Shown here: one piece after another, positions 8,743 through 44,464 of the stretch
Layout of the letters: each line of letters starts with the position of its first letter
How positions within the stretch are numbered: the stretch's first letter is position 1
Source: Candidatus Magasanikiibacteriota bacterium
GTDB taxonomy: Bacteria; Patescibacteriota; Patescibacteriia; Magasanikbacterales; UBA922
Length of the DNA stretch: 64,000 nucleotides
Direction: 5' to 3'
Assembly (NCBI GenBank): GCA_049287025.1
Contig: JBAQFA010000051.1
Span: 65,697-129,696, forward strand
Translations under genes and position numbers: made by a program
Notes under the pieces: model-generated
Told to the model about the DNA's origin: nothing
Seen by the model: only the letters and a program-made list of their open reading frames with translations
The model's database searches: none

Positions 8743-9987
8743 ATGAATGTAGGTATTGATATTCGTTGTCTCATGGATAAAAACAGAACCGGTGTTGGGG
8801 AATATACTTTTGGTTTGTTGGATAATTTATTTAAAGGCATTGATTCCACAAATTTTAAAAAAGATTACACTGATAATAAGAATCAGTTTTTTTTATTTTA
8901 TAATTCTAGTAAAGATATTTTAGCTAATTTGCCAAAATGGGGTTATGAAAATGTACATTATATTGGATTAAATTGGCCGAACAAATTGCTTAATTTGCTT
9001 TTGTGGTTGAGGTTGATTAGGTTGGATAAAATGGTGGCCAAAGTATTGAAAGATCAAAAGATCAACCTTCGTCCCGAGCTCAGGTCGAGGGAAAGATCAA
9101 AAGATCAAATTAACAATGTAACAATTCGACAATGTAACAATCTTAATATTTGGTTTTCTCCAAATCTAAACTTTACCAATTTATCCAAGGGAGTCAAGCA
9201 TATCCAAACCATTCATGATTTATCTTTTGAATTTTTTCCAGAATGTTTTACTTGGAAACAAAGATTATGGCATTGGTTTCTCAATCCAAAAAAACAGTGT
9301 AAACGAGCGGACATTATTTTAACACCATCGGAGAATACGAGACGGGACGTTGTCGACAGATATCATATATCAGATAACAAAATACAAGTATTGAGACCAG
9401 GACTGTCTGTAGACAGAGGACATAAGACAGAAGACATAAGACATAAATATGGTTTACCAGAGAAATATATTTTGTATTTAGGGACGTTAGAGCCACGCAA
9501 GAATGTTGAAAGCATAGTAGATGCCTATAAATTATATCGGTCACAGATCACTGATCACTACCCACTTGTCCTCGCTGGTGCTCTAGGTTGGAAAAATAAA
9601 AAATTAATGCAGTTAATCAAAAACACTCCCAACGTCAAATACAGTGGTTATGTGGATGGTGAGGATAAAATGGTATTATATAAAAATGCCAGTTTATTTG
9701 TTTTTCCAAGTTTATATGAGGGTTTTGGTTTGCCTGTTTTGGAAGCAATGTCCTGTGGCGTGCCTGTAATTACTTCTAATCGCTCATCGCTTACAGAAGT
9801 TGGTCAGGATGCAGTTTACTATGTTAATCCTAACAATGTTAATGAATTGGCGGGGGCAATGGAATTGATCATGAAAAATAATGAGTTAAGAACGCGGATG
9901 ATAGCCAGAGGTTTAGAAGTTGGCAAAGATTTTGATTGGCAAAAATCAGCTCAAGAACTACTAAGTGTAATAAATAATGTAAGTTGA
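8743..9987 (+). CDS. Glycosyltransferase family 4, carrying in-frame repeat insertions
   Basis: 414 aa. 'YLGTLEPRKN', 'VFPSLYEGFGLPVLEAMSCGVPVITSN'. Contains the family-A palindromic element (9049-9142) and a palindrome plus gacataa repeats at 9403-9447. Confidence 0.8.
   Translation: MNVGIDIRCLMDKNRTGVGEYTFGLLDNLFKGIDSTNFKKDYTDNKNQFFLFYNSSKDILANLPKWGYENVHYIGLNWPNKLLNLLLWLRLIRLDKMVAKVLKDQKINLRPELRSRERSKDQINNVTIRQCNNLNIWFSPNLNFTNLSKGVKHIQTIHDLSFEFFPECFTWKQRLWHWFLNPKKQCKRADIILTPSENTRRDVVDRYHISDNKIQVLRPGLSVDRGHKTEDIRHKYGLPEKYILYLGTLEPRKNVESIVDAYKLYRSQITDHYPLVLAGALGWKNKKLMQLIKNTPNVKYSGYVDGEDKMVLYKNASLFVFPSLYEGFGLPVLEAMSCGVPVITSNRSSLTEVGQDAVYYVNPNNVNELAGAMELIMKNNELRTRMIARGLEVGKDFDWQKSAQELLSVINNVS
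9049..9142. repeat. Family A palindromic element inserted in frame in the GT4 gene
   Basis: aaagatcaaaagatcaa-[cgtcccgagctcaggtcgagg]-aaagatcaaaagatcaa, then acaatgtaacaat x2. Encodes 'KDQKINLRPELRSRERSKDQINNVTIRQCNNLN'. Confidence 0.5.
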
Positions 9988-10114
9988 CGTTATAATAGAT
10001 ATAAATAACAGTTTAACATATATTATGTTAACATTAACACTGATAAGTCTGGTATATATTGGTAAAAAATGGCTAAAACTAGCTAAGTTTAAGAAAGTTA
10101 TTAACCTGTGAAGG

Positions 10115-10143
10115 TTGACTAATGTTGATTTTTGGGGTATAAT
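10115..10143 (+). promoter_or_regulatory. Sigma70 consensus-like promoter upstream of the large secreted protein gene
   Basis: TTGACT at 10115-10120, 17-nt spacer, TATAAT at 10138-10143. Confidence 0.5.
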
Positions 10144-10187
10144 CCGCTATTCTTAATTTAATCTTAATAATTTTTAATTAATAATCT

Positions 10188-13100
10188 ATGCGAAAAATCA
10201 TCATAGGAGTAGCCGTTTTTGCTCTAGCAATCATGGCTCTACCAAATACAGCCAGCGCTGGTGGCTGTTATTATCCAAGGACAGCTAGTGAAATTATTGC
10301 TAGTAGTCCAACTAAAATAAATTTTGAAAAAACTTATGCTTTGCCTTTGACAGGCTATTGGAGTGATAATGGTGTGATGTTTTCTTCGGACAATGGAAAA
10401 GCTATATATATTAATAGTTATAATCGTGGTGGTTCCACAACAGCTTCTGGTGAATATTCTCTGTCTAATAATGCTACTTGGCCAAAAACTAGTGCAAATG
10501 ATCCATTAAAAATAAATTTTAAAAATGCAGTAAATAAAGTTGGTTTGTATTTAGGTAATGGCGAAGGTAGCGAACCTGTTGTGGCCGTGGTATCTTTATT
10601 TAATAAGTCTGGAGAAAAATTGTGTGATATTGATGTAGATGTTAAGTCAGATAATGTAGATACATTTTTAGGTTTTGAAACTGTAGCTGATTTGTATTCA
10701 ATGACAATTGATTATGGTAATACTACTCTAAGTGAAGAAATAGATGATTTGATGTTTACTTATAGTTCTAAATATGATCCAATTTGTTCAGAAACAGATG
10801 ATGGAGAAGATTATTATGTAAAAGGTGAAACTACTGGTCACTGGCTTTGTGTTGAAGACGGATATCCAATAGTCACGGAAAAAGATGTTTGTGTAGATGC
10901 GAACACTGTAAGAGAATATATGTGTAATAGTGGATGTAATAATATTTTAGCAACCGACGTAAAATGTCCTAACGGTTGTGTAAATGGAGCTTGTGTATCT
11001 CCTAGCGATATTGTGGTGCCAACCTTATCCAATTTTGTAGCTTATGACACAATTAGTGGAATAGGTTTGGTAGAAAATAAAGTTGGCTACAAAAAATATG
11101 GTAGTTATTCAAAACCATTACCAGTTTCAATTTACAATTCAACTAAAGCAATTAAATTATCTTTGATGCTTAAAAATAGCAATGATAATTTTACTTATGC
11201 TTATGTCTGGAATAATAATCCTTCAGATGGTGTAGAAGCTGATTACAGTGAGCAGACTGTGAAATCTATGGCTGGGTCAGCCAATTTTAATTCTTCGGCT
11301 GTGACAACTTTGAATTTAACTGACTATTATCGTGGTAAGTATGTGATGGTGCATGCGTTTGTGAGAAATAATGATGGTAAATCCGAAGTGCCAAATATGT
11401 CAGTAGAAGTAGATGAAGTCGTGCCATTATATTTTAGAATTGAGAAATTAAAAACGCCAACAGTAAATAGTTGTGTAGATTCTGATAATGGTTTAGAAAT
11501 TTATACCAAAGGTAGTACCAAAGGAGAAAAAGAAGGTACTAGAGTTTATGGGATTTATAATGATTCTTGCAGTAATAAAGTTGGTGAATCTGGTTTGTAT
11601 AGTGGTAAATGGGTAGTGGAACAACATTGTAGTGGCCCAGTTGACAAACCATATGTACATACTCAATGGAATGATTGTCCAAATGGCTGTATGGATGGCA
11701 AATGTGCTGAAAAGACTGTTTATGATAATACCATAAAGCCTACGGTAGCTTATCCAACAAACAAACAAGTTCTAACAAATTATCCAAGAGTAGCAACCCT
11801 AAAATGGAATTCAATTAGTGAAGCAGTTTCTTATAATATAGAATTGACATGTGATCATTGTAATAGTGTCGCCTGGCAAGATTATTATAAATGGACTTCT
11901 AAATCTAATTATTATGTTACCACTCCTCTAGATGGTGACAATGAATTTAGATTTAAAGTAAAGGCTGTGTATGCAGATGGTAGTACCAGTCAATGGTCTG
12001 ATTATAGATATTTTAGTTATAATACGTCAGCGTATTCTGAGAGTGTCTGTAGTGACCCAGATGGTAATAATACTAATGTAAAAGGTTATTCTAATGGTCT
12101 AAATAAAGTGACTAACAAACCGATGAATTATGTTGATTCTTGTGTGGTAAGTGACACTAACACGGTTTATGCTTATAGTAGTAATTATGTTAATGAATGG
12201 GTGTGTACCGCAGGAAATATTGTAGATAGTAGAGTTAGCAAGTGTAAAAATGGTTGTGTTGATGGACTTTGTGTTGAAGACAGCGAAGTTAATTATGATA
12301 TATCTGGTACAAGAGTAGTATTTTATATTTCTCTGAACCAGACCATGAAGCATAAAGAAAGCGGAGTAAATATAAAGTTGAATTATTTTGATGATAAAAG
12401 AATTTTGGTAAATTTGGATGGTGGTGCATATTTTGATGAGACAGTTTTGAGTTTAAAGACAAAGACCCAATTTTCCTTGATAAATGACAGTGTAAATAAA
12501 ATTGCCTTTACCTATTTAGGTAAGACAGCTGATGGTAAACAGGCAAAAATTTTACTTGATTATGGTGCAGATACCAATTTGAATGAATATGGTGCAGATT
12601 GTAATTTGAAAGTATATACAAAGGGTGACCAAACTGGTGGTGATGGAGTCTATCGTTTGTATGGTAGTGACAAACTTTATCATAGTGTATCTGGTATTAC
12701 TATGTCAGCTGACCCACTTGAAAAAAGTGCTAAGATTTATTTAGCGCTAAAGGGTGCTAAAGTATCTAATGTATTGATTAGTGCGAGTAGCATGAAATCT
12801 TTTACTTCAGCTAATGAAAAATATAATTTGACAGTTACATATAATGGATCTGATCCTTGTGGTGGTAGTATTATCACAGTAAAAAGTGAAAAGATTAGCA
12901 ATGAGGATTCTTGTTATAATTTATCTGGTATGGGAAACTTAGCTAAAGCTTGGGGTGATAATAAGGTCTGGTATGTGGAAGGTAATAATAAATATTGGTT
13001 TTCTTCAGCCGATGTTTATTTGTCCTGGTTTAGTGATTTCTCTGGTATCAAACTTACTGATGATAGTACAATTAATTCATTGACTCAGGGTGATAATGTT

Positions 13101-13640
13101 TGTCTAAAAACCGTATCAACTTGCTACAATCTTTCTGGTAAAGGTTATTTGGCCAAATCTTGGAATGATAACAAAGTTTGGTATGTTGATAATTCTACCA
13201 AGTATTGGTTTGCTAGTGAAAGTATTTTTAAATCTTGGTTTAAAGATTTTTCTGGAATCAAACTTATCAATGATAGTGTAATGAATTCTTTTGCTCAGGG
13301 TTCTGGTGTGTGTTATAAAGGTAGTATTACTATTCCAGTGGTAGAGAAACCTATCGTATCTTCAGGTGTGTCTTGTGGTAATTCGGCCGGTGGCGATGGT
13401 TTATATAGTATGTGTAAAGGTGATTCTATCCGCCATAGTGATGGGTTTACTATTACCAATCAAGCTTACACTGATAAAGTTTTGTCTTTAAAAACTGATG
13501 GTTTGGTAGCAACTTATATGCGTTTACCTATGAATGTCCCAGTCGTCATACAAGATATTACAGGAAAGAATAAGTATGATGTCACTTATACGCAAAAAAC
13601 AGATAAACACGGTGCATTCTTACAGATTGACAGTAAATAA
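10188..13640 (+). CDS. Large secreted cysteine-rich surface protein (signal peptide; CxNGCxxGxC modules; FN3-like domain; two C-terminal ~75-aa repeats)
   Basis: 1150 aa. Signal peptide 'MRKIIIGVAVFALAIMALPNTASA'. Repeated 'CPNGCVNGACV', 'CPNGCMDGKC' and 'CKNGCVDGLCV' modules. C-terminal duplicated repeat 'CYNLSG.G.LAK.W.DNKVWYV...KYWF...FSGIKL'. Confidence 0.7.
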   Translation: MRKIIIGVAVFALAIMALPNTASAGGCYYPRTASEIIASSPTKINFEKTYALPLTGYWSDNGVMFSSDNGKAIYINSYNRGGSTTASGEYSLSNNATWPKTSANDPLKINFKNAVNKVGLYLGNGEGSEPVVAVVSLFNKSGEKLCDIDVDVKSDNVDTFLGFETVADLYSMTIDYGNTTLSEEIDDLMFTYSSKYDPICSETDDGEDYYVKGETTGHWLCVEDGYPIVTEKDVCVDANTVREYMCNSGCNNILATDVKCPNGCVNGACVSPSDIVVPTLSNFVAYDTISGIGLVENKVGYKKYGSYSKPLPVSIYNSTKAIKLSLMLKNSNDNFTYAYVWNNNPSDGVEADYSEQTVKSMAGSANFNSSAVTTLNLTDYYRGKYVMVHAFVRNNDGKSEVPNMSVEVDEVVPLYFRIEKLKTPTVNSCVDSDNGLEIYTKGSTKGEKEGTRVYGIYNDSCSNKVGESGLYSGKWVVEQHCSGPVDKPYVHTQWNDCPNGCMDGKCAEKTVYDNTIKPTVAYPTNKQVLTNYPRVATLKWNSISEAVSYNIELTCDHCNSVAWQDYYKWTSKSNYYVTTPLDGDNEFRFKVKAVYADGSTSQWSDYRYFSYNTSAYSESVCSDPDGNNTNVKGYSNGLNKVTNKPMNYVDSCVVSDTNTVYAYSSNYVNEWVCTAGNIVDSRVSKCKNGCVDGLCVEDSEVNYDISGTRVVFYISLNQTMKHKESGVNIKLNYFDDKRILVNLDGGAYFDETVLSLKTKTQFSLINDSVNKIAFTYLGKTADGKQAKILLDYGADTNLNEYGADCNLKVYTKGDQTGGDGVYRLYGSDKLYHSVSGITMSADPLEKSAKIYLALKGAKVSNVLISASSMKSFTSANEKYNLTVTYNGSDPCGGSIITVKSEKISNEDSCYNLSGMGNLAKAWGDNKVWYVEGNNKYWFSSADVYLSWFSDFSGIKLTDDSTINSLTQGDNVCLKTVSTCYNLSGKGYLAKSWNDNKVWYVDNSTKYWFASESIFKSWFKDFSGIKLINDSVMNSFAQGSGVCYKGSITIPVVEKPIVSSGVSCGNSAGGDGLYSMCKGDSIRHSDGFTITNQAYTDKVLSLKTDGLVATYMRLPMNVPVVIQDITGKNKYDVTYTQKTDKHGAFLQIDSK

Positions 13641-13692: not shown

Positions 13693-13980
13693 TTATTTTT
13701 CCAGTTCAGCTAGTTTTTTTTCCAATTCATCAAAAGTTAAATTTCCAGCCCTGTATGATTCAAAAAGTGTTAATTCTTTTTTTATCAGCTCAGAGTCAAC
13801 TGGTTGGTTGTCTCTTTCTTGACCGTATATGGCTTCGGCAGCGGCAACGTTTTCTTCTGTAATTCTTTGTATTTCTTCATCAGTGCGCTGTGGTTCACCA
13901 GTCATTTCATCTTTTAGTTCCAGAGCTTCTTTAAGCTCTGGGTATTTGGCGAGTAAAGCCTCCAATTTTTGATTGTCCAT
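13693..13980 (-). CDS. Small acidic coiled-coil hypothetical protein
   Basis: 95 aa. Last gene of a tightly spaced minus-strand operon. No recognisable domain. Confidence 0.5.
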   Translation of the reverse strand: MDNQKLEALLAKYPELKEALELKDEMTGEPQRTDEEIQRITEENVAAAEAIYGQERDNQPVDSELIKKELTLFESYRAGNLTFDELEKKLAELEK

Positions 13981-13994
13981 AATTTTTAAATTAA

Positions 13995-15434
13995 TTAATT
14001 AGTAAAATAATTCATTTGTTTTAATTTTTCAACAGTTTTTATTGTTATTTTTTCAATTACTTCTGGTGTTAAGTCTTTAAATTGCGTTGCTAATTCTTTT
14101 GCAGATTCAGCAATAACTTTGGTAATTTGGCTTGTATAACTTTCGCCATTTTTACTTTCTTTTTTTCTTGTGTCGTCAACAAAAGACACTCCTTTACCAA
14201 TTTTATCAGTAAAAAATGAAGTTTTTTTTCGTACTGCATCCTGTGGTATTTGTGAAATTATTGTTTTAATTGCTTGTAGCCATTGATCGGATTCTGTTTT
14301 TTGTTCTGTTGTCTCTGCTTTCGGTATATATAAATATGCGACACAAGTATCAGTTCTTTCATATGCAGCAAAATCTTTTCTAAACTTGAATTTTAAGCGA
14401 ATTCCGTTTTGATCTAAATAATCAGAAAGTTTACTGAGACATTCTGCAACTTTAGTAGTGCCATCTGGGCTGGCGTTAATATAGAATCGTACCTCTCGTG
14501 CATTATCCTTGTATGGAGCATTACCTTTAAACCAAACGAATCCCGCTGCTTGGTCTGGCTGTTGACCGTCGATAAGTTCTTGTTCGGTAATGTGTCTAAC
14601 TTTAGAAGATTGTGTTACTATATCAATTAATCTGTTACTAATTTCGGTATCGAAGTTTGCAATGAAATTTTCTTTGTCTGGGACATTAATCTCATCTTTT
14701 ACCTCTTGGTCAGTCATACCAGATTTATGTATATATTCATACATTACTACCGGCATTTTTGCTAGCATCTCAACATCACTTAAAGACTGTCGTTTTTTAA
14801 ATTCATCATCTGTTTCCCCAATATTTTTTCTGTTTCTAAATCTATCCATCTTCCCTCGAAAGTCTTTATCATTGAGAACAAGTTGTAGAAAATTTTTAAT
14901 TTGTTCTTCAAACAGTTGTTCTCTTTCAGATTTTATTTTTGTTTCAAGCTTATTGGTTGTTGTTTTTGGTAAAGGTTGTTTTTCTTTCTGCCTGAGATAA
15001 TCTAAAATTTTCTGTCGCAGTTTAACTTGTTCTGGGTCTGTGGTTCCCCAGAGTTCTTGTACAATTTCAGAAGACAGCCCTCGATACTTGGTTGGGATGT
15101 CTTGTTCTGTTATTGGTGGTTCGATACTCTCAGGCTTTGACATTGGCTGTTTTTCCTTGCCTCTTAGATACTCCAAAATTTTTTGACGTTTTTCAATCTC
15201 GTCTGGATGTGAAGTCTGCCAGATCTCTTCAAGTATTTCTGCAGAAATGCCACGATATTGAGGTGGTATATCTTCTTCGGTTGTTGGTTGTTCAGTGTCT
15301 TCTTCCAATTCAAAAAGCGTCTCAGTTGCTAATTTTTCTTGAGCTTTTGTTTGACCAGAAGTTGAACGAGGCTGTTTTTCGGTTGGGTGTAATTCTGGGT
15401 TTATGATTTGTTCTATTTCTTCATCTCTGTCCAT
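13995..15434 (-). CDS. Hypothetical protein with a tandem ~50-aa acidic N-terminal repeat
   Basis: 479 aa. The repeat 'EEDIPPQYRGISAEILEEIWQTSHPDEIEKRQKILEYLRGKEKQP' is followed by a near-identical copy 'EQDIPTKYRGLSSEIVQELWGTTDPEQVKLRQKILDYLRQKEKQP'. No recognisable domain. Confidence 0.6.
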   Translation of the reverse strand: MDRDEEIEQIINPELHPTEKQPRSTSGQTKAQEKLATETLFELEEDTEQPTTEEDIPPQYRGISAEILEEIWQTSHPDEIEKRQKILEYLRGKEKQPMSKPESIEPPITEQDIPTKYRGLSSEIVQELWGTTDPEQVKLRQKILDYLRQKEKQPLPKTTTNKLETKIKSEREQLFEEQIKNFLQLVLNDKDFRGKMDRFRNRKNIGETDDEFKKRQSLSDVEMLAKMPVVMYEYIHKSGMTDQEVKDEINVPDKENFIANFDTEISNRLIDIVTQSSKVRHITEQELIDGQQPDQAAGFVWFKGNAPYKDNAREVRFYINASPDGTTKVAECLSKLSDYLDQNGIRLKFKFRKDFAAYERTDTCVAYLYIPKAETTEQKTESDQWLQAIKTIISQIPQDAVRKKTSFFTDKIGKGVSFVDDTRKKESKNGESYTSQITKVIAESAKELATQFKDLTPEVIEKITIKTVEKLKQMNYFTN

Positions 15435-15436
15435 AG

Positions 15437-16282
15437 TTAGTTTAATTCCTTTATTTTTTTGATTAATTCAGAAACAGGCAAACTATCTCCAAATGGTTTG
15501 TATAGCATTCCCTTAAATTTTTTTAATCCAAACTTTGAAAAAGTTTCTAAAATATTTAGATTAAACTCTTTTAAAGCTAAAAATACTTTTTTTAAATCTT
15601 GATCATAAAAATTTTCTTCCAGTCTGTAAAAGGCTGCTAATAATTGGTGACGTATTTCTGGGTTAAAGATTTTATAACACAGTTCTTTGCGGAAAGTATT
15701 CTCTAGAGGATAATATGCTGGTAGATTGCCAGCTTTGGTTTGTAATCCCGTTGTAAGTAATTTTTGTTTGTCGTTCTCATTTAAGTAAGTAAATTCATAG
15801 AGCACTTGTAATGTGTATTCTAAAACATAAAAAATACCTATTTTTTGAATAACATCTTTATCATTTTTTTCTTGTTCTTCTGGGGATAGTTTTTTTGTCC
15901 TGTCCGCTAATTTTTTCAATAAAACGTGATGTTCTATTACGGCTGTTTTGGTTTTTGTAAATATTTTGTTTATATCCCCTAATAATTCTTCAACTTGGGT
16001 GTTTGGTGCTGGGGTGTTTGAATAAATATCAATAACATTGCCGAGCGCTTGGATAAATTCAACCTCATTAATTTTTGTTTCCATTAGTATTATTTCTGTA
16101 TTTTTTATAGCTTTGTAAGCGTGAGTAGTGGTTAGGTTTTTATTTTCCAGAGCATTTTTTAGAGAAATTGTTGCTGATAGAATATTTTTTAGAATTATTT
16201 TTTGTTCTTCTGTACCCCAAAAGTTTAATGGTTTTGTGCCCAATTTTTGAATTGTTTCAAGAAGAGTGTAGAGTGGTGTCAT
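15437..16282 (-). CDS. Hypothetical alpha-helical protein
   Basis: 281 aa. Its stop lies 2 bp before the start of the downstream gene. No recognisable domain. Confidence 0.55.
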   Translation of the reverse strand: MTPLYTLLETIQKLGTKPLNFWGTEEQKIILKNILSATISLKNALENKNLTTTHAYKAIKNTEIILMETKINEVEFIQALGNVIDIYSNTPAPNTQVEELLGDINKIFTKTKTAVIEHHVLLKKLADRTKKLSPEEQEKNDKDVIQKIGIFYVLEYTLQVLYEFTYLNENDKQKLLTTGLQTKAGNLPAYYPLENTFRKELCYKIFNPEIRHQLLAAFYRLEENFYDQDLKKVFLALKEFNLNILETFSKFGLKKFKGMLYKPFGDSLPVSELIKKIKELN

Positions 16283-16364: not shown

Positions 16365-17585
16365 GTGATAAATTATAGCTATATGAAAATAGGTATTGAC
16401 GCTAGAATGATGGGTTCAAAACAAGCTGGTTTAGGACGTTATGTTGAACAGCTGGTTTTGGGTTTATTGGAACAGGACAAAGAGAATGAATATGTACTGT
16501 TTACAAACAACGGTAACACACCATGTCTGCCTGCGACGGCAGACACCCCACTCAAGAGGGGATTTAAAATTGTTGAAGCAAACATACCTTGGTACAGCTG
16601 GCAAGAACAGACAAAATTTAAAAAAATAATTGATAGGGAAAAAATTGATTTAATGCATTTTCCTCACTGGAATGTGCCGTTATTTTATAATAAGCCATTT
16701 GTCGTCACGGTGCATGATTTGATTATGTACCATTATCCTCGGCAAGAGGCGAGTACTCATGGGCCGTTTGTTTATTGGCTGAAAGATTTAGGACATCGCC
16801 TAGTACTTAATCACGCGGTACAAAAAGCCAAGCATATTATTGTGACGAGTGAATTTACCAAGCAGGATTTACATCAGACCTTGGGAGTTTCATTAGAAAA
16901 AATGACTGTGACTTACCAAGCACCGTTTCAAAACACGATTCATGATTCACATAACACGACACAAGTTTTAAAAAAAAATAATGTTGAAAAACCATACGTT
17001 TTGTATGTTGGGAATGCTTATCCTCATAAAAATTTGGAAGGATTGTTAAAGTCTTGGAAAATTTTTAATGAAAAATATGGCAATGAATACCAATTAGTTT
17101 TGGTTGGCAAAAAGAATTTTTTTTATGAAAGACTTTTGAAAGATCAAAAGATTGAAAGATCAAAAGATCAGGAAGAAAAATCAGGATTTTCCGATCTTCC
17201 GATCTTCCGATCTTCAATTATTTTTACTGATTACGTCACAGACAATGAACTATCCCAACTATACGTCAACGCTTCACTCTACGTCTTCCCTTCACTCTAC
17301 GAAGGTTTTGGTTTACCACCACTCGAAGCACAACAATATAATGTGCCAGTGGTTTCTTCCAGTGCTAGTTGTTTGCCAGAAATATTAGGCGAGTCGGCGT
17401 TGTATTTTGATCCAGAGAATTATGAACAAATGGCGGAGGTGATTTATACTGGTTTGACTAATGAAGATATGAGATTTGAATTAAGACAAAATGCGAGAGA
17501 AAACCTAAAACGTTTTAATTTAAATAATATGATTAGTCAGACGTTGTTGATTTATAATAATATTGTTAAATTATTACATTATTAA
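16365..17585 (+). CDS. Glycosyltransferase family 4, carrying in-frame repeat insertions
   Basis: 406 aa. 'VFPSLYEGFGLPPLEAQQYNVPVVSSSASCLPEIL'. Contains a family-B palindrome (16525-16544), a family-A element (17137-17216) and a 12-nt direct repeat (17273-17301). Confidence 0.8.
   Translation: MINYSYMKIGIDARMMGSKQAGLGRYVEQLVLGLLEQDKENEYVLFTNNGNTPCLPATADTPLKRGFKIVEANIPWYSWQEQTKFKKIIDREKIDLMHFPHWNVPLFYNKPFVVTVHDLIMYHYPRQEASTHGPFVYWLKDLGHRLVLNHAVQKAKHIIVTSEFTKQDLHQTLGVSLEKMTVTYQAPFQNTIHDSHNTTQVLKKNNVEKPYVLYVGNAYPHKNLEGLLKSWKIFNEKYGNEYQLVLVGKKNFFYERLLKDQKIERSKDQEEKSGFSDLPIFRSSIIFTDYVTDNELSQLYVNASLYVFPSLYEGFGLPPLEAQQYNVPVVSSSASCLPEILGESALYFDPENYEQMAEVIYTGLTNEDMRFELRQNARENLKRFNLNNMISQTLLIYNNIVKLLHY
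17137..17216. repeat. Family A palindromic element inserted in frame in the GT4 gene
   Basis: gaaagatcaaaagattgaaagatcaaaagatcagga ... tccgatcttccgatcttccgatcttc. Encodes 'LKDQKIERSKDQEEKSGFSDLPIFRSS'. Confidence 0.5.
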
Positions 17586-17790: not shown

Positions 17791-20433
17791 ATGCCAGCAA
17801 AAAGAAATGTACAATTGAGGTCTTGTTCTCTGTGCGGTCGCACTGGTCATAATCGAGCGCGGTGTAAAAATAATATTGCAGAGACAAAAATTGAAAAAAA
17901 GGCTAAACCAACGCAAAAAAACAAATTATCAACTAAGAAAAAGTTGGTAAAAAAGATAGCGGAGGATTTTTTTGTTTCTCAAAAAATTGGTTTAGGTAAG
18001 CCTATACTTGTTAGAAGCGAGATTAATACCAAATCATCACCGCACATAATAAATTTGAAACGAAAAGAAGAAACAGTTTGGGACAAAGTTGGTGTTTATC
18101 AGGAAAAGGGTTTAATCCAAAAACAAAATGTGGTGGTAGATTTTGGGCAAATGGTAAAGAAGGCTAACGCCGTTGGATTGGGAATGAGGAGTAGGGGTTT
18201 GGAGGCGAGAAATATTAAAATACATAAATCAGATTCAGTGTTGAATAATAATTATAAAAAAAATAAACAGAAAATAAATATTAATTCAGTCTTCGCTAAC
18301 CTGTCTGTGCGGGCAGGAGCTGTGATGGACAAGCAAAAATTAAACAGAAATTTTACAAAAATTAAAAATATTATTTTAAGTACGTGGAATTCTACATTCT
18401 ACATTCTACATTCTACATTCCGAAATTTCAATTACAAAAAGTTAGCTTATGCTTCTTTAGTTTTATTAATACTAATTAGTTTACCATTTCCAGCTTTTAG
18501 TTATTACAATAGTGTGCAAAATACTAGTGCCAGAATAGTAGAGGCGAGTACCAATGCTTTTTTATCTTTACAGTCTTCAACGGTGGCGGCTATGAATTAC
18601 AACATTCCTCAAGCGCAATTTGATTTGAATGAAGCTTTAATTTCATTTGGTGAAGCCAATACAATTGTAGACAAAGAACATCAAGTGTTGCAGTATGTGG
18701 CTGGCCTTTTACCCGTGGTTGGTACCCAAGTAACTAGTCGTCAACATTTATTAGTAGCTGGTCACCACTTGGCTTTGGGTAATACTTATCTTGTAAAGGG
18801 TTTAAAAGAAGTGGAAGATAATAATAGTTTTTCTACAACTGACAAAATTAAAATTATTGCTAATCATTTGTCTAGTGCTATACCACAATACGAAGAAGCC
18901 TTGGCTGATTTGAGTGCAGTTGATTCTTCGGCTGTGCCAGTTGAATATCAAGAATCTTTTAATGATTTTAAGGTTTTATTTACGGCTCTAGTTGATGATA
19001 TGAATGACATCGTTGATTTGTCTGATTCTCTAGATTTAATTTTTGGTTCAGACCAATTAAAAAGATATTTGCTTGTATTTCAAAATAATAGTGAACTACG
19101 TCCGACAGGTGGTTTCATGGGTAGTTTTGCGATTATGGATGTGCAAAAAGGCAAAATTACAAATTTGGATATTCCGGGTGGTGGAACTTATGATTTACAA
19201 GGTCAATTGAATGAATATCTTAAACCACCATTACCTTTGCAATTGTCTAATGATAGATGGGAATTTCAAGATGCCAATTGGTTTCCAGATTTTCCAGCTA
19301 GCGCAAAAAAGATTGCCTGGTTTTATGAACATGGTCGTGGTACCACGGTTGATGGGGTAATAGCTCTCAATGCTTCAGTTTTGGAAAGACTTTTATCAGT
19401 TTTGGGTCCAGTGACAAATTCAGAAAATAATTTGACATTGGCATCTGATAATGTTTTACCTCAATTACAATACAAAGTAGAAGTTGATTATGATAAAGAA
19501 GAAAATAAGCCAAAAGAAATTTTGTCAGATTTGGCTTCGCAATTTTTAAATAGTATGACTCAGTTGGATGCCATGAGTGCCATTCGTCTTTTGTCAGAAT
19601 TAAATGAAGCTTTGACACAAAAAGAAATTCAAGTTTATTTTAATGATAGTATGCTCGAGTCCAAGATGAAAAGTTTTGGCTGGGCTGGAGAAATTATTAA
19701 TAATACGAATGATCAAGATTATTTGTATGTAGTGAATACTAATATCCATGGACAAAAGAGTGATGCAAAAATAAAACAAACAATTGAACATCAAGCGGTA
19801 ATTGATGACAGTGGTTCAATTTTGGATACAGTGGTAATTACTCGGGAGCATACCGGTACACCAGGAGAAATGTTTTTTGGTGTTAACAATGTGGACTATA
19901 TTAGAGTTTATGTTCCAGCTGAGGCAGAATTAGTTGAAGCGGGTGGTTTTGTTTATCCGCCCGAAGAAGCTTTTTATGTGCCAGAGGATTGGTATAAAAT
20001 TGATTCTGATTTGGAAACCAATGAAAAGGAAATTAATATTGATAAAAAAACCGGTACGAGAATTACTAGCGAATTTGGTAAAACCGCTTTTGGTAATTGG
20101 ACAATGACTGCTCCTGGTCAAATCAGTAAAGTTTATTTTACTTACAAATTACCTTTTAAAGTGATAACGGAAAATAATAAAGAAGAGACGACTTTTGAAA
20201 AATGGAAAAAAACTTTTGTAGGTGAAGCGACCGAAGTATCACGTTATAGTTTGTTTGTCCAAAAACAATCTGGGATTGATAGTGATTTTAATTCTCGGGT
20301 TATTTACCCAGCCAACTGGACACCAATTTGGCAAGAAAATGAAAATTTGCAGATGGCTGTTAATGGGGCCGAGTTTTCAACCAGACTCAAGACTGATGAT
20401 TTTTTTGGATTAATAATGGAAAAAAATAATTAA
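17791..20433 (+). CDS. Membrane protein with an N-terminal CCHC zinc knuckle and a large extracytoplasmic DUF4012-like domain
   Basis: 880 aa. 'CSLCGRTGHNRARC' fits C-x2-C-x4-H-x4-C. One TM helix near aa 215-235. 'NNSELRPTGGFMGSFAIMDV...DANWFPDFP' is as recalled for DUF4012. Confidence 0.55.
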   Translation: MPAKRNVQLRSCSLCGRTGHNRARCKNNIAETKIEKKAKPTQKNKLSTKKKLVKKIAEDFFVSQKIGLGKPILVRSEINTKSSPHIINLKRKEETVWDKVGVYQEKGLIQKQNVVVDFGQMVKKANAVGLGMRSRGLEARNIKIHKSDSVLNNNYKKNKQKININSVFANLSVRAGAVMDKQKLNRNFTKIKNIILSTWNSTFYILHSTFRNFNYKKLAYASLVLLILISLPFPAFSYYNSVQNTSARIVEASTNAFLSLQSSTVAAMNYNIPQAQFDLNEALISFGEANTIVDKEHQVLQYVAGLLPVVGTQVTSRQHLLVAGHHLALGNTYLVKGLKEVEDNNSFSTTDKIKIIANHLSSAIPQYEEALADLSAVDSSAVPVEYQESFNDFKVLFTALVDDMNDIVDLSDSLDLIFGSDQLKRYLLVFQNNSELRPTGGFMGSFAIMDVQKGKITNLDIPGGGTYDLQGQLNEYLKPPLPLQLSNDRWEFQDANWFPDFPASAKKIAWFYEHGRGTTVDGVIALNASVLERLLSVLGPVTNSENNLTLASDNVLPQLQYKVEVDYDKEENKPKEILSDLASQFLNSMTQLDAMSAIRLLSELNEALTQKEIQVYFNDSMLESKMKSFGWAGEIINNTNDQDYLYVVNTNIHGQKSDAKIKQTIEHQAVIDDSGSILDTVVITREHTGTPGEMFFGVNNVDYIRVYVPAEAELVEAGGFVYPPEEAFYVPEDWYKIDSDLETNEKEINIDKKTGTRITSEFGKTAFGNWTMTAPGQISKVYFTYKLPFKVITENNKEETTFEKWKKTFVGEATEVSRYSLFVQKQSGIDSDFNSRVIYPANWTPIWQENENLQMAVNGAEFSTRLKTDDFFGLIMEKNN

Positions 20434-22884: not shown

Positions 22885-22961
22885 AAAAAAACACGATACA
22901 AAATACACTTATCACTACACAAATAATATGTATCGTGTTATGTGTGTCATGTATCGTGTTT

Positions 22962-23037
22962 TGGTACGCCGCCTGGGGATTGAACCCAGGACCTTGGGCT
23001 TAAGAGGCCCCTGCTCTACCAACTGAGCTAGCGGCGC
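22962..23037 (-). tRNA. tRNA-Lys (anticodon CTT)
   Basis: Minus-strand sequence GCGCCGC-TA-GCTCAGTTGGTAGAGC-A-GGGGC-CTCTTAA-GCCCA-AGGTC-CTGGG-TTCAATC-CCCAG-GCGGCGT-A-CCA. Confidence 0.85.
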
Positions 23038-39111: not shown

Positions 39112-39603
39112 ATGTGTAGTCGAGAAGTAGACTTAAGTTTTGGAGAATTGGCTAGAAAAATAAAGTATGGGCCAAGACCTAGTACGGAAAAAATAGAACA
39201 AGATTTTTTTGGGGAAGGAAAAGAGCTTCCCCAGTCTTTTTTGGATAAAGTGACAGATTTTTTAATTAGAGAGGATCACTACTCGCCTAGACCAGGACAC
39301 CACAGAGTCTTCGATTCCATTTTTATGTTAGAAGGTCATAAAATTTTGGTTCACTATATATTGAGAGAACGTTTTGACCATAAGAATCAAACAGATGATT
39401 TGTTAACACATGATGGTATGGGCTATATTAGGATAGGAGAAGGAGAATTGCATAATAGTATGATAGAAATTGATGATAAAAATCCAGAAGTGGGAGAAAG
39501 AGAGACGCTGGGTCTAACCGATGATAATTTGGTTAAATTAATTAGGAAAGAGATGATCACTTATCTACGTAGTCTTGGAGAATTAGCTTTTAAAGAAAAA
39601 TAA
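39112..39603 (+). CDS. Hypothetical protein
   Basis: 163 aa. No recognisable domain. Confidence 0.45.
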   Translation: MCSREVDLSFGELARKIKYGPRPSTEKIEQDFFGEGKELPQSFLDKVTDFLIREDHYSPRPGHHRVFDSIFMLEGHKILVHYILRERFDHKNQTDDLLTHDGMGYIRIGEGELHNSMIEIDDKNPEVGERETLGLTDDNLVKLIRKEMITYLRSLGELAFKEK

Positions 39604-39607
39604 AAAA

Positions 39608-39630
39608 TCGGGGTATGAACCTCGGTTTTT
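39608..39630 (+). terminator. Rho-independent terminator (hairpin with loop tatgaa)
   Basis: tcgggg-tatgaa-cctcgg followed by T5. An inverted copy of the same hairpin lies at 40787. Confidence 0.55.
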
Positions 39631-39633
39631 AGT

Positions 39634-39662
39634 TTGACAAAACACGAAAAATGTGCTATAAT
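39634..39662 (+). promoter_or_regulatory. Perfect-consensus sigma70 promoter (TTGACA-17-TGnTATAAT)
   Basis: TTGACA at 39634-39639, 17-nt spacer with TG at 39654-39655, TATAAT at 39657-39662. Lies 54 bp upstream of the TSP3 gene. Confidence 0.55.
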
Positions 39663-39715
39663 ATCTCTAGTTTTTAAATAAAATTGGCTAAATAAAGCCA
39701 AATAATTAGAAAAAT

Positions 39716-40321
39716 ATGAAAGAAGGACCATGGTTTAAAACGGCGGCTAAATTTGTCATACCATTGGTTGGATTAGGAATGGCAAGCCCAAATGCTGAAG
39801 GAAGAGAGCTTAAGTTTGAAAAAAATAAAGCTTCATATGCTATTGACCCCGATGGTGATGGTGTACCATCTGTACGTGAGGACTCAGAGGGTCGACTGGT
39901 TAGAGGTGATAATTGTCCAAAAAAGCCCAATCCTGACCAATCGGATGCTGATTATGATGGTGTTGGAAATGCATGTGACAATTGCCCTGAGGAAAGAAAT
40001 CGAAGGGAGAATCCTGGTGAGAGTAAAAGATACCGGGTGGGAGGGGATGGTTCTATCATTGGTGATCCTTATGAAATATTTGAGAAAGCTAAACAGCCAG
40101 ATAAAGATGGTGACGGTATCGGCGATGAATGTGATTTTGATGGCAATGATGTGGATGGTGATGGCATTATTAATGGCGCTGATAATTGTCCACATAATCC
40201 GAACAAGGGTCAATCAAATTTGGACCACGATGGTCTTGGTGATGCATGTGATGACGATGCTGATGGGGATGAAATTTCTAAAAAGAATGATAGAAATGAC
40301 TTAGATCCAAATAAATTTTAA
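39716..40321 (+). CDS. Thrombospondin type 3 repeat (calcium-binding) protein, secreted
   Basis: 201 aa. N-terminal hydrophobic signal. Repeated 'DNCPxxPNxDQSDxDxDGxGxACD' units, e.g. 'GDNCPKKPNPDQSDADYDGVGNACDNCP', 'DKDGDGIGDECD', 'DNCPHNPNKGQSNLDHDGLGDACDDD'. Confidence 0.7.
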   Translation: MKEGPWFKTAAKFVIPLVGLGMASPNAEGRELKFEKNKASYAIDPDGDGVPSVREDSEGRLVRGDNCPKKPNPDQSDADYDGVGNACDNCPEERNRRENPGESKRYRVGGDGSIIGDPYEIFEKAKQPDKDGDGIGDECDFDGNDVDGDGIINGADNCPHNPNKGQSNLDHDGLGDACDDDADGDEISKKNDRNDLDPNKF

Positions 40322-40356
40322 AATTATTTTATATTAATTCAGTCAATTATAAAAAT

Positions 40357-40779
40357 ATGGGAAATCCTACACAAGAAGGAATAAATCCAAGTGCTCGAGA
40401 AGTTGAAGGAGCTTTTTTTGGGACAGATTCTCGTGGAAAAAAATATCAACCTTTAGAAACTGATGAGGAAATTTTCGTTAGAGAAAGAGCAAAAAAAGTA
40501 AGTAGATTGAAAGAATTGTTAAGATATTGGAATAATGGAATTGATGATTTTGATATCACTACACGTCCGGTAATTGATGACGACGTAGAAAAACTTGTAT
40601 CTGGTGGATATCCTATGGCGGTAGCGGAAACTGCTGAATGTTTAAGATTTTTAAAACACGATTGTGGTATGAGTGAAAATGATGTCAAAAATTCACTTGT
40701 AGGTGTGACTCCTATTAATTCCAATTGGTTTGACAGAGACTTAGAAAAACACATTTTAGAAGTGTACAGAGAAATTTAA
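40357..40779 (+). CDS. Hypothetical protein
   Basis: 140 aa. No recognisable domain. Confidence 0.45.
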   Translation: MGNPTQEGINPSAREVEGAFFGTDSRGKKYQPLETDEEIFVRERAKKVSRLKELLRYWNNGIDDFDITTRPVIDDDVEKLVSGGYPMAVAETAECLRFLKHDCGMSENDVKNSLVGVTPINSNWFDRDLEKHILEVYREI

Positions 40780-40786
40780 ATAAAAT

Positions 40787-40810
40787 CCGAGGTTCATACC
40801 TCGGTTTTTT
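40787..40810. terminator. Bidirectional terminator (hairpin with loop ttcata, inverted copy of the one at 39608)
   Basis: ccgagg-ttcata-cctcgg followed by T6. Serves the convergent genes at 40357 (+) and 40840 (-). Confidence 0.55.
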
Positions 40811-40839
40811 GTTTTATTGTGTTACTCTGTTGTTCTGTT

Positions 40840-41511
40840 CTAAGTGTTCAAATGTAATGGATTAAAATTTGTATCCTTATCAAAAAAATCTTCATTTTCT
40901 TTTTTCTTTAGGAAATTGACCACACGGTAGGTGAGAGGTAAGAAAATAATTTCAATCCCAACTTTGAAAATGTAGTTTGATATCCAAATAATCCAAATCA
41001 AGTCCCAAGGCAAGACTCCTGCAAAGGCGATGAGTAAAAATATAGTAGTGTCAAAGAATTCACCAACCAATGTGGAACCTATGGCACGGAGCCAAAAATA
41101 TTTACCAGCGGTTTTTACTTTTAATTTTGCCAAAATATAACTATTTAAAAATTCACCAATTAAATAAGCACATAAACTTCCCAATACTATTCTAGGTACG
41201 ACACCAAGGATTGCATCATAGGCGCCTTGGTTACCCCAATCCATGGCAGGAGGAAGAATACCTACAACAAAAAAAGTGAAGACCATTAATAAATTCATGA
41301 TAAAGCCAGTCCAGATAACTCGTCTGGAGTTGGCATAGCCATAGACCTCTGTAAGAACATCACCAAATATATAGGCTAGAGGAAAAAGAATTGTGCCACC
41401 ATCAAAACTAAACCAGCCGAGTGATAAAATTTTACTACTGGCGATGTTAGATAGGATTAGGACGACTGAGAATAATGTGGTGATGAAGGCGAGGTATTTG
41501 TATTGTTTCAT
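40840..41511 (-). CDS. Queuosine-precursor transporter, YhhQ/COG1738 family
   Basis: 223 aa, about 6 TM. 'FDGGTILFPLAYIFGDVLTEVYGYANSRRVIW' matches the YhhQ signature. Confidence 0.7.
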   Translation of the reverse strand: MKQYKYLAFITTLFSVVLILSNIASSKILSLGWFSFDGGTILFPLAYIFGDVLTEVYGYANSRRVIWTGFIMNLLMVFTFFVVGILPPAMDWGNQGAYDAILGVVPRIVLGSLCAYLIGEFLNSYILAKLKVKTAGKYFWLRAIGSTLVGEFFDTTIFLLIAFAGVLPWDLIWIIWISNYIFKVGIEIIFLPLTYRVVNFLKKKENEDFFDKDTNFNPLHLNT

Positions 41512-41661
41512 AAATTTTAACTATCCAGATATCCGGATAATCCAGATTTACGGATAAATTAATGAATAAAAAAAAGATGAGCACCGAGCCATCTAATGTC
41601 ACCTTGATGGGGTAATAAATTATGGAAGTATTATATGGAAAAAAATTTATTTTGTCAATAA

Positions 41662-42885
<1,224 letters not shown>

Positions 42886-42937
42886 TTATTTACCAATTTT
42901 ATATTATTTTGCAATAAATTTCAAGGTGTGGTAAGAT

Positions 42938-43588
42938 TTGTTTGTTAATCATAATTTTATGCAGAGAAATCGAATTGAAATGGGTGACTTTAAAAAAGAG
43001 ATGGGTGTTGCTCCACATGTTTCTTTTAAAGGACAAAAACATAAAGAAATATTATTTGAAAATAATCCAGCAAAATATCCTCCGGAAGCATATCCAGCCG
43101 AGAATACACCTTTTGGTAATATAAATATAGAAGAAAATCCAGTTATTGAAATTGCAATGAAACAAGGTTTGATCATGATTTTGGATGATGGTAGGGCATG
43201 GGTGACTATTAAAGGAAAAGAATTTTTAGAATGTCATAATAAAAAAAATTTTGAAAATGGTTATTTTGACGGTCAAGACAGAGTGCCTTTTTTTGGTAGG
43301 CTTGATAAAAAAGATATTGAAAATAATGGTTATTTAAAATGGGGTTTAGAAAATGGCCTGTTGGAACAAGAGGGTGAGGGAGAAATTAAAGTTAAAGTTC
43401 CAGAAGGATATGAATTTTTGAATACTCTTAAAAATTTAAATACAGCGTTTGCTGTTGATGGCGATAAATACGCTTATAGTAAATTCACAGATGCTGGTGG
43501 TACGTTGGCTCAGAGGGCAAAAGAGCGTAAACGTGATCAGAGGGATAAATATAGACAAACATTGGAAAAAATTTTAAAGGGCCGATAA
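42938..43588 (+). CDS. Hypothetical protein
   Basis: 216 aa. No recognisable domain. Confidence 0.45.
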   Translation: MFVNHNFMQRNRIEMGDFKKEMGVAPHVSFKGQKHKEILFENNPAKYPPEAYPAENTPFGNINIEENPVIEIAMKQGLIMILDDGRAWVTIKGKEFLECHNKKNFENGYFDGQDRVPFFGRLDKKDIENNGYLKWGLENGLLEQEGEGEIKVKVPEGYEFLNTLKNLNTAFAVDGDKYAYSKFTDAGGTLAQRAKERKRDQRDKYRQTLEKILKGR

Positions 43589-43599
43589 GCCCTTTTTTT
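43577..43599 (+). terminator. Rho-independent terminator overlapping the stop codon
   Basis: aagggc-cgataa-gccctt followed by T5. Confidence 0.55.
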
Positions 43600-43609
43600 A
43601 TTATCTTTT

Positions 43610-44464
43610 TTGTTCTACAATATAAGAATGAGAGAATACTTTTGGTTTAATATAATGTGCTTATCAATCTCAGTGTTTTGTGGACTGGGGACGTTTTTGA
43701 TTTGGCAGAATTTTTTAAATACTGAGTCATTTGTTCATTATACAATTACATCACAAATTGAAGTAGAAGATCAAAAGACTAAAAGATCAGAAGATCAAGT
43801 AATTTTGAATAAAGATCTTCCGATCTTGCGATCTTCTACTCTTGACATAGCAAGTACAACAAAAAATAAAAAAATTATTGAACTACCAAAACAATACAAC
43901 CTCGCCGTCCCATTTACTTCCCAAGCGCCAGAAAAGAATTGGGATCAGCCGTGGCAGGATGCTTGCGAAGAAGCAGCACTTCTGATGTTGGATGCTTATT
44001 ATAAAAATTATAAATTGAGTCCTTTATTTGCCAAGGATGAAATTTTGAAAATGGTAAAGTGGGAGGAAAATAAAGGCTGGGGGAGAAGTATTGAAATAGA
44101 AAAGATAAAACAGGTAGCAGAGGAATACTTAAAAATTTCCAATTTCCAATTTCCAATTTCCAAACTCGTGATTATTGAAAATCCCACAGTTGAAGATATT
44201 AAAAAATCGATTGCCAATGATAATCCAGTGTTAGTCGTGGCCGATGGAAAAGCTTTACCCAATCCACATTTTCAAAATGGTGGTCCAGAGTATCACGCCT
44301 TAATTATTCGTGGCTATACTGAAACCAAATTTATTACCAATGATCCGGGTACACAGTTTGGTGAAGCGTTTGAATATGAGTATGATGATTTGATGGATGC
44401 GATTAGAGATTGGAATAATGGAGATGTGAAGAATGGACGCAGAGTAATTTTGGTGATAGAATAA
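43610..44464 (+). CDS. Peptidase C39-like (papain-fold) domain protein, membrane-anchored, with in-frame repeat insertions
   Basis: 284 aa. N-terminal TM helix. 'VPFTSQAPEKNWDQPWQDACEEAALLMLDAYY' fits the Peptidase_C39_2 pattern. Family-A element at 43766-43840, tttccaa x4 at 44135-44163. Confidence 0.5.
   Translation: MFYNIRMREYFWFNIMCLSISVFCGLGTFLIWQNFLNTESFVHYTITSQIEVEDQKTKRSEDQVILNKDLPILRSSTLDIASTTKNKKIIELPKQYNLAVPFTSQAPEKNWDQPWQDACEEAALLMLDAYYKNYKLSPLFAKDEILKMVKWEENKGWGRSIEIEKIKQVAEEYLKISNFQFPISKLVIIENPTVEDIKKSIANDNPVLVVADGKALPNPHFQNGGPEYHALIIRGYTETKFITNDPGTQFGEAFEYEYDDLMDAIRDWNNGDVKNGRRVILVIE
43766..43840. repeat. Family A palindromic element inserted in frame in the C39-like gene
   Basis: gaagatcaaaagactaaaagatcagaagatcaag ... 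aaagatcttccgatcttgcgatcttc. Encodes 'EDQKTKRSEDQVILNKDLPILRSS'. Confidence 0.5.

Follow-up and report, generated by a model that had tools for sequence, protein, structure and literature searches.

In-frame palindromic repeats in unrelated genes are described from Rickettsia as Rickettsia palindromic elements (RPEs; Ogata et al. 2000, 2002, summarised in PMC10969869), and translated palindromes have been described from Coxiella as QMITEs (PMC5896051), a kind of miniature inverted-repeat transposable element (MITE). Coding DNA with dyad symmetry is also known from PARCELs, 25-residue units arrayed many times in dedicated open reading frames (ORFs) of unknown function (PMC2996958), and from the long, perfect and lineage-specific coding palindromes of Nematomorpha mitochondria (PMC6649704). 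The phenomenon has largely been regarded as peculiar to Rickettsia, apart from a few cases involving MITEs in other organisms, and our literature search returned no report of palindromic or in-frame repeats for bacteria of the candidate phyla radiation (CPR) and, in full text, no paper with the 14-mers of the element considered here. That element, family A, is found in a 64-kb stretch of a Candidatus Magasanikbacteria (Patescibacteria/CPR) genome, hereafter the window, at three loci, c1, c2 and c3, within two genes for family 4 glycosyltransferases (GT4 #1 and GT4 #2) and one gene for a C39-like peptidase.

As a DNA repeat, family A is both genuine and dispersed, and two of its copies, c2 and c3, are palindromic. 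We think it rather probable that this Magasanikbacteria repeat behaves like the RPEs, as selfish or neutral DNA at permissive positions of proteins. Only c2 and c3 are complete, and they follow a common plan, (AAGATCAA)x4, loop, (GATCTTCC)x3 (Table 1). The full form is an imperfect hairpin of 75-85 bp whose left arm consists of three to four tandem AAGATCAA octamers and whose right arm is a complementary octamer array; over the three loci, copy length ranges from 75 to 97 bp. Tandem Repeats Finder (TRF) reports the arms of c2 and c3 as period-8 arrays of 2.9-4.0 copies, and it finds in the left arm of c2, ordered TTGA AAGATCAA AAGATTGA AAGATCAA AAGATCAG, a perfect 16-bp tandem duplication. The flanks of both copies are themselves inverted and extend the stem (TTGAAAGATC..GATCTTCAA in c2, GTAGAAGATC..GATCTTCTAC in c3).

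The remaining locus, c1 (9046-9142), is a composite. It has the left-arm module only, interrupted by a GC-rich hairpin; after this module comes another octamer array, of ACAATGTA type, that occupies the place of the inverted arm and has no complementarity to the left arm. The GC-rich hairpin CCTTCGTCCCGAGCTCAGGTCGAGGG, with three flanking bases, stands where c2 has the two nucleotides TG, a net gain of 27 nt (nine codons) that stays in frame. At one mismatch or fewer, ACAATGTAACAAT has three matches in the window against 0.29 expected. The second octamer family, with the peptide NNVT(I/M)xQxNN, follows an A-type left arm at two sites, c1 and 10773-10803 of the related locus L097 (in the loop of its GT4 #2); similar peptides are also seen in several other GT4 #2 orthologues.

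An original prediction, made by reading the window alone, gave coordinates and motifs for the three segments that agree with the sequence. It described three palindromic copies in three unrelated genes, each translated as a KDQK...SDLPIFRSS-like peptide, with a core hairpin in the first. Palindromy holds for c2 and c3, which have both arms and hairpin z-scores of -4.4 to -6.0, but c1 has neither the inverted GATCTTCC arm nor the DLPIFRSS peptide, although all three copies, each within a long stop-free ORF, are read through in frame. The peptidase is indeed a distinct host, but the other two hosts are GT4 paralogues, albeit with c1 and c2 at different positions in them. The hairpin in c1 is real, but it is no recurring core, with no second copy in the window at three mismatches or fewer. 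The observation is thus partly confirmed and its interpretation partly supported.

Table 1. Host genes of family A and parts of its three copies (window coordinates; TRF, Tandem Repeats Finder)
Feature	Position	Strand	Basis or remark
Host gene 1: GT4 glycosyltransferase (GT4 #1), 414 aa; c1 at about aa 102-134	8743..9987	+	ORF and translation; Pfam Glycos_transf_1 5.7e-37, Glyco_transf_4
c1 left-arm module, part 1: TTGA + AAGATCAA x2	9046..9065	+	19 nt identical to c2 left arm, including TTGA
GC-rich imperfect hairpin CCTTCGTCCCGAGCTCAGGTCGAGGG, 26 nt, nested in c1 left arm	9066..9091	+	comparison with c2; local stem predicted
c1 left-arm module, part 2: AAAGATCAAAAGATCAAA	9092..9109	+	TRF period 8, 2.2 copies, 100% match
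c1 second octamer array: ACAATGTA / ACAATTCG / ACAATGTA / ACAATC; peptide NNVTIRQCNN	9110..9142	+	TRF period 8, 3.9 copies
Host gene 2: GT4 glycosyltransferase (GT4 #2), 406 aa; c2 at about aa 258-285	16365..17585	+	ORF, translation, Pfam
c2 left arm: TTGAAAGATCAAAAGA x2.1, equal to AAGATCAA-type octamers x4	17136..17170	+	TRF period 16, 2.1 copies, 100% match; period 8, 4.0 copies
c2 loop/spacer: GGAAGAAAAATCAG, 14 nt	17171..17184	+	mostly unpaired or weakly paired in predicted fold
c2 right arm: GATTTTCC GATCTTCC GATCTTCC GATCTTCAA, stop-free complement of left arm	17185..17217	+	TRF period 8, 3.9 copies, 95% match
Host gene 3: C39-like peptidase, 284 aa; c3 at aa 52-77	43610..44464	+	ORF and translation; Pfam Peptidase_C39_2, residues 98-246
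c3 left arm: GTAG AAGATCAA AAGACTAA AAGATCAG AAGATCAA	43763..43798	+	TRF period 8, 4.0 copies, 75% match
c3 loop: GTAATTTTGAATAAA, 15 nt	43799..43813	+	unpaired in fold
c3 right arm: GATCTTCC GATCTTGC GATCTTCTAC	43814..43839	+	outer GTAGAAGATC / GATCTTCTAC pair perfectly

The window is AT-rich (GC about 34%, with strongly positive GC skew), and the similarity of the three loci was measured against that background. Allowing up to two mismatches, the 15-mer AAGATCAAAAGATCA matches the window nine times, eight of them within the three loci, where 0.68 would be expected; in 100 shuffles nine matches are never reached. The composite pattern AAGATCANNAGATC-N5-35-GATCTTNNGATCTT matches only c2 and c3 (0.00 expected). 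Local DNA alignment gives scores of 68 for c2-c3 (z=18), 38 for c1-c2 (z=8.5) and 29 for c1-c3 (z=5.0), relative to 3000 random window segments with a mean of about 14 and a standard deviation of about 3; no background pair reaches the observed scores, and the copies thus align with one another far better than the window's background does. A sliding match to the 24-nt octamer consensus on both strands exceeds the shuffle level at just these three loci, and the only clusters in the window of at least three GATC sites spaced 30 bp or less apart are c2 and c3, with six sites each.

Folding follows the same division. The c2 hairpin has -29.8 kcal/mol on the sense strand (z -4.4) and -36.6 on the antisense strand (z -5.4), the c3 hairpin -27.3 (z -5.0) and -32.1 (z -6.0), the antisense strand folding better because AA/CC mismatches turn into G.U pairs there; for c1 no single overall hairpin is obtained (RNA z -2.9 and -1.7). 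No match to a known structured RNA or self-splicing intron was found: an Rfam scan of the window and eight related loci returned only RNase P RNA and tRNAs and no family over the element. An explanation by GATC avoidance or restriction-modification lacks support: the observed/expected ratio for GATC is 0.87 over the window, related loci range from 0.6 to 1.4 apart from L066 (0.24), and L096 and L097, whose arms have lost GATC, stand at 0.68-0.86.

Three features indicate that family A is a DNA-level element: rare codons, near-perfect intergenic relatives, and a change of TT to CC in the coding copies. The peptide would then be a by-product and not the selected object. Because 8 and 3 are coprime, all frames of an 8-bp array give the same cyclic eight-residue peptide; a shared peptide is therefore automatic, a by-product of the array, and no independent evidence. 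For the same reason the use of the same frame in every copy, once considered as evidence, was dropped. The codons of the right arm are rare in this genome (CTT 0.10, CCG 0.11, ATC 0.09, TTC 0.06, CGA 0.09), and codon choice in the right arm of c2 has a log10P of -6.5 versus -3.8 expected. In a metagenome orthologue of the C39-like peptidase (L103; 57% identity, from a 52%-GC genome) the right arm is identical to that of c3 at 23 of 24 nt, with the same codons, at a third-position identity of 0.35-0.37 in the rest of the gene.

The substitutions in the coding copies follow the stop codons that the perfect sequence contains. The perfect right arm, (TTGATCTT)n, has TGA in each of three frames within three units, as has the reverse complement of the left arm, so that no frame on either strand of a perfect element is open. 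In coding copies CC or GC stands in place of TT, giving CCGATCTT or GCGATCTT, and the frame stays open; the A.C mismatches of the sense-strand stem are accounted for in the same way. At locus L056, CC is found only at the single arm junction where TGA would be in frame, and the two out-of-frame junctions keep TT and CT. A census of proteins by peptide profile (the peptide duplicated to reach the 40-residue minimum, searched against 5.8 billion proteins) was abandoned, having failed to recover the window proteins and given 13 weak matches, mostly short ORFs (51-92 aa) over (AAGATCAA)n-type arrays, two of them from Photobacterium and Pseudomonas. Database entries such as P0121-P0133, short "hypothetical proteins" from Photobacterium, Pseudomonas and metagenomes, mostly translate long arrays of this type, with KDQKIKRS repeated, and are probably spurious ORFs.

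The GT4 #2 protein (P0001) is 100% identical to a Candidatus Magasanikbacteria protein from a metagenome-assembled genome at NCBI, and its close homologues are all from Magasanikbacteria. In the AlphaFold2 models of both transferases the repeat-encoded segment lies in a helix-to-strand connection of a Rossmann-type domain, in a loop of low predicted local distance difference test score (pLDDT). The GT4 #1 model (mean pLDDT 88.5) falls below 50 at residues 111-130, between helix 94-104 and strand 136-139; the GT4 #2 model (mean 85.8), a GT-B fold that matches solved MshA, BshA and WaaG, falls below 50 at residues 257-270 (P0001 numbering), between helix 246-260 and strand 279-283. Each model drops below 50 at two places only, this segment and one other variable loop. 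From the general topology of Rossmann-type folds, the inserts of c1 and c2 would be on the side facing away from the substrate cleft. The c3 segment follows the N-terminal membrane anchor, beginning about 20 codons after it, and precedes the peptidase domain. Further in-frame hosts in other Magasanikbacteria are an O-antigen-ligase-like Wzy_C protein (L025), with the copy between membrane segments, an 812-aa membrane protein (L056), with the copy about 38 residues past the last hydrophobic segment, and the C39-like peptidase of L103. What is encoded is predicted to be a disordered hydrophilic peptide, cyclic KDQKIKRS followed by DLPIFRSS.

Orthologous sites vary in content. In an alignment of 30 orthologues of GT4 #2, the segment just before the FPSLYEGFG region is very variable in length, many sequences having no insert and others unrelated inserts; the original prediction had placed the GT4 copy in a linker before that motif, and the alignment has its variable-length segment exactly there. 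The c1 site is gapped in most homologues, most of which phmmer splits into two stretches around c1, and the c3 linker is hypervariable in the orthologue alignment. The copies can be called inserted, as they had been, to the extent that the sites are empty in most homologues, but these homologues are distant ones. The idea that the C39 copy is a private recent insertion fails, since the same element is found in the same linker of orthologues of 56-62% identity, patchily placed on the tree: P0137 (62% identity; DNA in L095), P0151, L103 and L103's neighbour P0192. All four have the DNA repeat along with the peptide, and in P0135, the closest C39 orthologue (75% amino acid identity), both are decayed, with the right arm about 69% identical at a third-position identity of 0.69-0.72 for the gene; conservation of the peptide without the repeat was not seen among these orthologues. 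A neighbour-joining tree of 117 C39 orthologues, itself of weak resolution, places the carriers in two or more widely separated clades, interspersed with numerous non-carriers; this patchy pattern fits ancient retention and recurrent insertion alike.

In L097, a syntenic relative with 76% protein identity, the c2 site holds a decayed left arm, AATCAAGAAAACAAAA, perfectly duplicated and with every GATC lost, joined not to an inverted arm but to a ACAATGTA-type array, the same combination as in c1 of the window. The duplicated 16-mers at this site are identical within each genome and different between the two. By these comparisons the sites show turnover, not one clean insertion. At the exact c1 site, L097 (5188-5300) has a different 113-bp nested palindrome with outer arms GTCATCTTGAGCGAA / TTCGCTCAGGATGAC and a peptide ending ...LRFAQDD, and other homologues have still other repeat-like peptides, such as CHCEELQSDEAI...ARNDS and NDPSLTLPLLRGG, both here and in the GT4 #2 loop. 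P0192 has a separate nested insertion (peptide SAQGGSASGGQ) that breaks the right arm of its element, analogous to the GC-rich hairpin of c1. In the sister lineage, a left-arm-only copy at L096 2212-2246 (AAAGATTTAAAGATCAGAAGATCAAAAAATAA) makes up the last codons and the stop of an NTP-transferase gene, so the module can also supply a C-terminus; because of this copy, the notion that the family is dead in the sister lineage was judged only partly true.

Some relatives are non-coding. At L060, between two co-directional genes, near-perfect arms with TGA form a hairpin of -43.9 kcal/mol (z -11.7); on the gene strand the stem has -37.7 kcal/mol and is followed by a U-run, UUUUUUGUUU. The non-coding copies at L003, L101 and L104 also have near-perfect arms still containing TGA. 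In the coding copies of the window the U-runs are broken by CC substitutions, and the terminator feature of stem plus U-run is absent. With one genome per species, the two-arm pattern is found at 94 loci against roughly 0.1 expected by our own estimate, only five of the loci being CPR-like and the rest belonging to Polyangiaceae (GC about 70%), Vicinamibacterales (GC about 64%) and Pseudomonas of the fluorescens group (GC about 60%); a search of viral contigs gave no match. In these three groups perfect (AAGATCAR)2-4 / (YTGATCTT)2-4 hairpins with variable loops occur in multiple copies, Polyangiaceae SMAG_U2550 having more than 20 strict ones, and the Pseudomonas arms enclose cores that vary, REP-like TGTAGGAGCTGCCGAAGGCTGC among them. 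Outside the CPR these octamer hairpins are mostly between genes, often just past stop codons; of the intergenic relatives, 22 are in tail-to-tail and 6 in head-to-head arrangement.

The window is also rich in short tandem arrays as such. Among arrays of at least 2.8 copies there are 12 heptamer and 7 octamer arrays, versus about 0.6 and 0.75 in second-order Markov shuffles; any enrichment of periods 3, 6 and 9 is weaker. Examples are AGACATA x5 (9411-9446), ATTCTAC x4.6 (18389-18420), TAGGTTT x5 (42224-42259) and AATTTCC x4.3 (44134-44163). Most of the 7- and 8-bp arrays lie within genes at variable loops, and some are kept at orthologous positions in relatives. A similar excess is seen in most other Magasanikbacteria loci examined (L096, L097, L025, L056, L103, L003), and in view of this lineage-wide abundance family A is one paired, palindromic instance of it.

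On the RPE-like reading, the copies would simply be translated as a tolerated disordered peptide at permissive loops and linkers. They might spread and be renewed by octamer slippage with homogenisation of arrays within a genome, or else by copying or recombination between copies, or by a putative hairpin- or octamer-specific activity, and other small hairpins do nest into existing copies. Decay at a roughly neutral rate in one lineage (P0135) fits such a life. Several facts weigh on the other side. Copy number is low (three loci in 64 kb and, in a metagenome scan for the CC variant, six loci, too few for frame or orientation statistics). Since c1 is a half-copy, not every member of the family forms a hairpin, and the union of left arm and ACAATGTA array recurs at a second site, in L097, without any palindrome. 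No empty site was seen within a species, the word "inserted" resting on distant homologues only, and as to mobility there is no direct target-site duplication at the flanks of c1, c2, c3 or L060. Near-consensus arms in the same C39 linker of at least two distant clades could mean selection for function, and the occurrence of the octamer hairpin in four distant bacterial groups, at 33-72% GC, points to a putative sequence-specific factor outside this explanation. The main rival, which we consider unlikely but the strongest of its kind, is accordingly a selected nucleic-acid signal in mRNA or DNA (a pause module of stem plus rare codons, an RNase III or processing site, or a GATC-octamer protein-binding array) that would regulate expression or targeting of envelope proteins. 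The persistence of near-consensus arms in C39 orthologues of 56-62% identity, whose synonymous sites are saturated, argues for it, together with the run of rare codons in the right arm, the setting of several copies 20-40 codons past a membrane segment (C39, L056) or between such segments (L025), the recurrence of the hairpin across four groups despite their range of GC, and the position of intergenic relatives just past stop codons with its tail-to-tail bias. Against such a signal stand the near-neutral decay in the closest C39 orthologue, the left arm without any GATC at the c2 site of the syntenic relative, the lack of the element in most orthologues of all three genes, and the absence of a membrane anchor from both GT4 hosts; moreover the sense stem is the one weakened by A.C mismatches, and c1 has no stem at all.

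The other candidates fare worse. Phase variation, in which slipped-strand mispairing would gain or lose one 8-bp unit and so switch surface-related genes off and on, draws on units (8 and 16 bp) that are not multiples of three inside envelope-related ORFs (GT4, Wzy-like, C39-like), on the strong excess of 7- and 8-bp arrays, and on the different perfect 16-bp duplications at the c2 site in the window and its relative, which show that slippage or duplication does happen over evolutionary time. Known contingency tracts are usually longer and perfect; the arrays here are short (two to four units), match at 75-100% and are often imperfect, no length variant is on record (two contigs for P0001 carry the same protein), and both the inverted-arm architecture and the intergenic copies would be left unexplained. 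We regard it as very unlikely. No better placed is a classical MITE mobilised by a transposase encoded elsewhere in the genome. The inverted arms of c2 and c3, the small size, the several genomic sites and the occasional nesting would suit it, and in-frame fusions by MITEs are known (PMC10969869), but the arms are tandem octamers and not unique terminal sequence, the flanks are inverted where a direct duplication would be expected, viral contigs gave no match, and a scan of 20 ORFs within the 64 kb, like the syntenic annotation of L096, yielded neither a transposase nor a DNA methyltransferase. Cut-and-paste movement of the classical sort is unlikely because of the missing target-site duplications and the lack of a transposase nearby. 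Least credible of all is selection on the shared peptide, as a linker or short linear motif (KDQK...DLPIFRSS), instead of on DNA: the peptide is present in at least five proteins, always as a hydrophilic loop segment, but its recurrence is automatic for any frame, its rare codons are fixed in every copy in genomes of 33% and 52% GC alike, its two halves are mutually reverse complementary, perfect non-coding copies exist, and it is predicted to be disordered and is missing from most orthologues. A rather long shot is the suggestion that the (AAGATCAR)n / (YTGATCTT)n hairpin is the substrate or product of a putative conserved sequence-specific activity in Polyangiaceae, Vicinamibacterales, Pseudomonas and CPR; in Magasanikbacteria this activity would both seed and renew small hairpins and arrays of 7 or 8 bp where the loops of envelope proteins permit them. 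Were it true, the system would be an active generator of protein-loop diversity and not passive junk.

Other features of the window deserve mention. A 48-nt segment of GT4 #2 (16916-16963, peptide QNTIHDSHNTTQ) has 81% complementarity with a palindrome at 22888-22976, which is intergenic and beside two tRNA genes; the pair forms a further repeat family common to coding and non-coding DNA, and the 76% orthologue keeps a similar peptide. Another small hairpin family is a 26-nt GC-rich palindrome (CCTGCCTGCGCAGGCAGG core), found just upstream of a Bac_transf sugar-transferase gene (6097-6122) and inside it (6692-6717). The RNase P RNA at 5586-5999 scores only 103 bits (gathering threshold 100) versus 173 bits for that of L060; it is flanked by a 33-nt inverted repeat (5562-5594 / 5987-6019) and may hold inserted repeats too. 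Between the gene for a 1150-aa protein and GT4 #2, a minus-strand block (13693-16282) holds two unannotated ORFs along with the gene for a 478-aa protein that resembles the HopA1 family; the block is missing from L097 and L098, which are otherwise syntenic, and the local GC skew falls to 0 there.

The occurrence of RPE-like inserts in a CPR lineage as well suggests that colonisation of protein loops by repeats is general in small, gene-dense genomes. For CPR metagenomics the practical consequences are that such inserts inflate apparent protein divergence, break alignments in two and create spurious small ORFs. Three features of the present case stand out: octamer arms with a stop-codon filter, loops re-used by different families across species, and 7- and 8-bp arrays in roughly 10- to 20-fold excess. 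The cross-phylum hairpin offers a well-defined sequence with which to seek a factor that would recognise it.

Among known systems, the RPEs are the nearest in description: like them, family A is a dispersed palindromic family of a small genome, in frame in unrelated genes, translated, at positions that the fold tolerates, and with no associated transposase. The likeness is one of description; RPEs are larger (about 100-150 bp versus 75-97 bp here) and the host is a CPR bacterium, so that family A is not counted among the Rickettsia families proper (RPE-1 to RPE-10). We know of no RPE whose arms are tandem octamers. Family A is further set apart from RPEs by its visible stop-codon filter, its perfect non-coding relatives and the re-use of the same loops by different repeat families. 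REP, REPIN, BIME and SPRITE sequences share with it short hairpins without target-site duplications, a position of the intergenic relatives (L060, L003 and those of GC-rich genomes) just downstream of genes, with stem plus U-run at L060, and the REP-like cores that octamer arms flank in Pseudomonas. They differ from the window copies in that the latter are intragenic and translated, have the conserved GTAG tetranucleotide (as GTAG/CTAC) beside c3 only, and are accompanied by no RAYT seen in the 64-kb window. MITEs (Coxiella QMITEs, PMC5896051; ERIC; Correia) are likewise small, have inverted arms and can sit in ORFs and add peptides, but family A has neither a target-site duplication nor a related insertion sequence, and its arms are built of 8-bp tandem units. 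PARCELs and mitochondrial palindromes resemble it as translated coding DNA with dyad symmetry, and differ in that family A adds one short stretch to enzymes that are conserved over the rest of their length. Contingency loci share the non-triplet unit in surface-related ORFs, but family A has two to four imperfect units plus an inverted array, and no length variation was observed. The short 7-8 bp arrays dispersed round the genome (12 heptamer and 7 octamer arrays in the window) recall the STRR sequences of heterocystous cyanobacteria, tandem heptanucleotides that Mazel et al. in 1990 are said to have found mainly between genes, and that were reportedly not described as paired, inverted and translated arrays in housekeeping genes.

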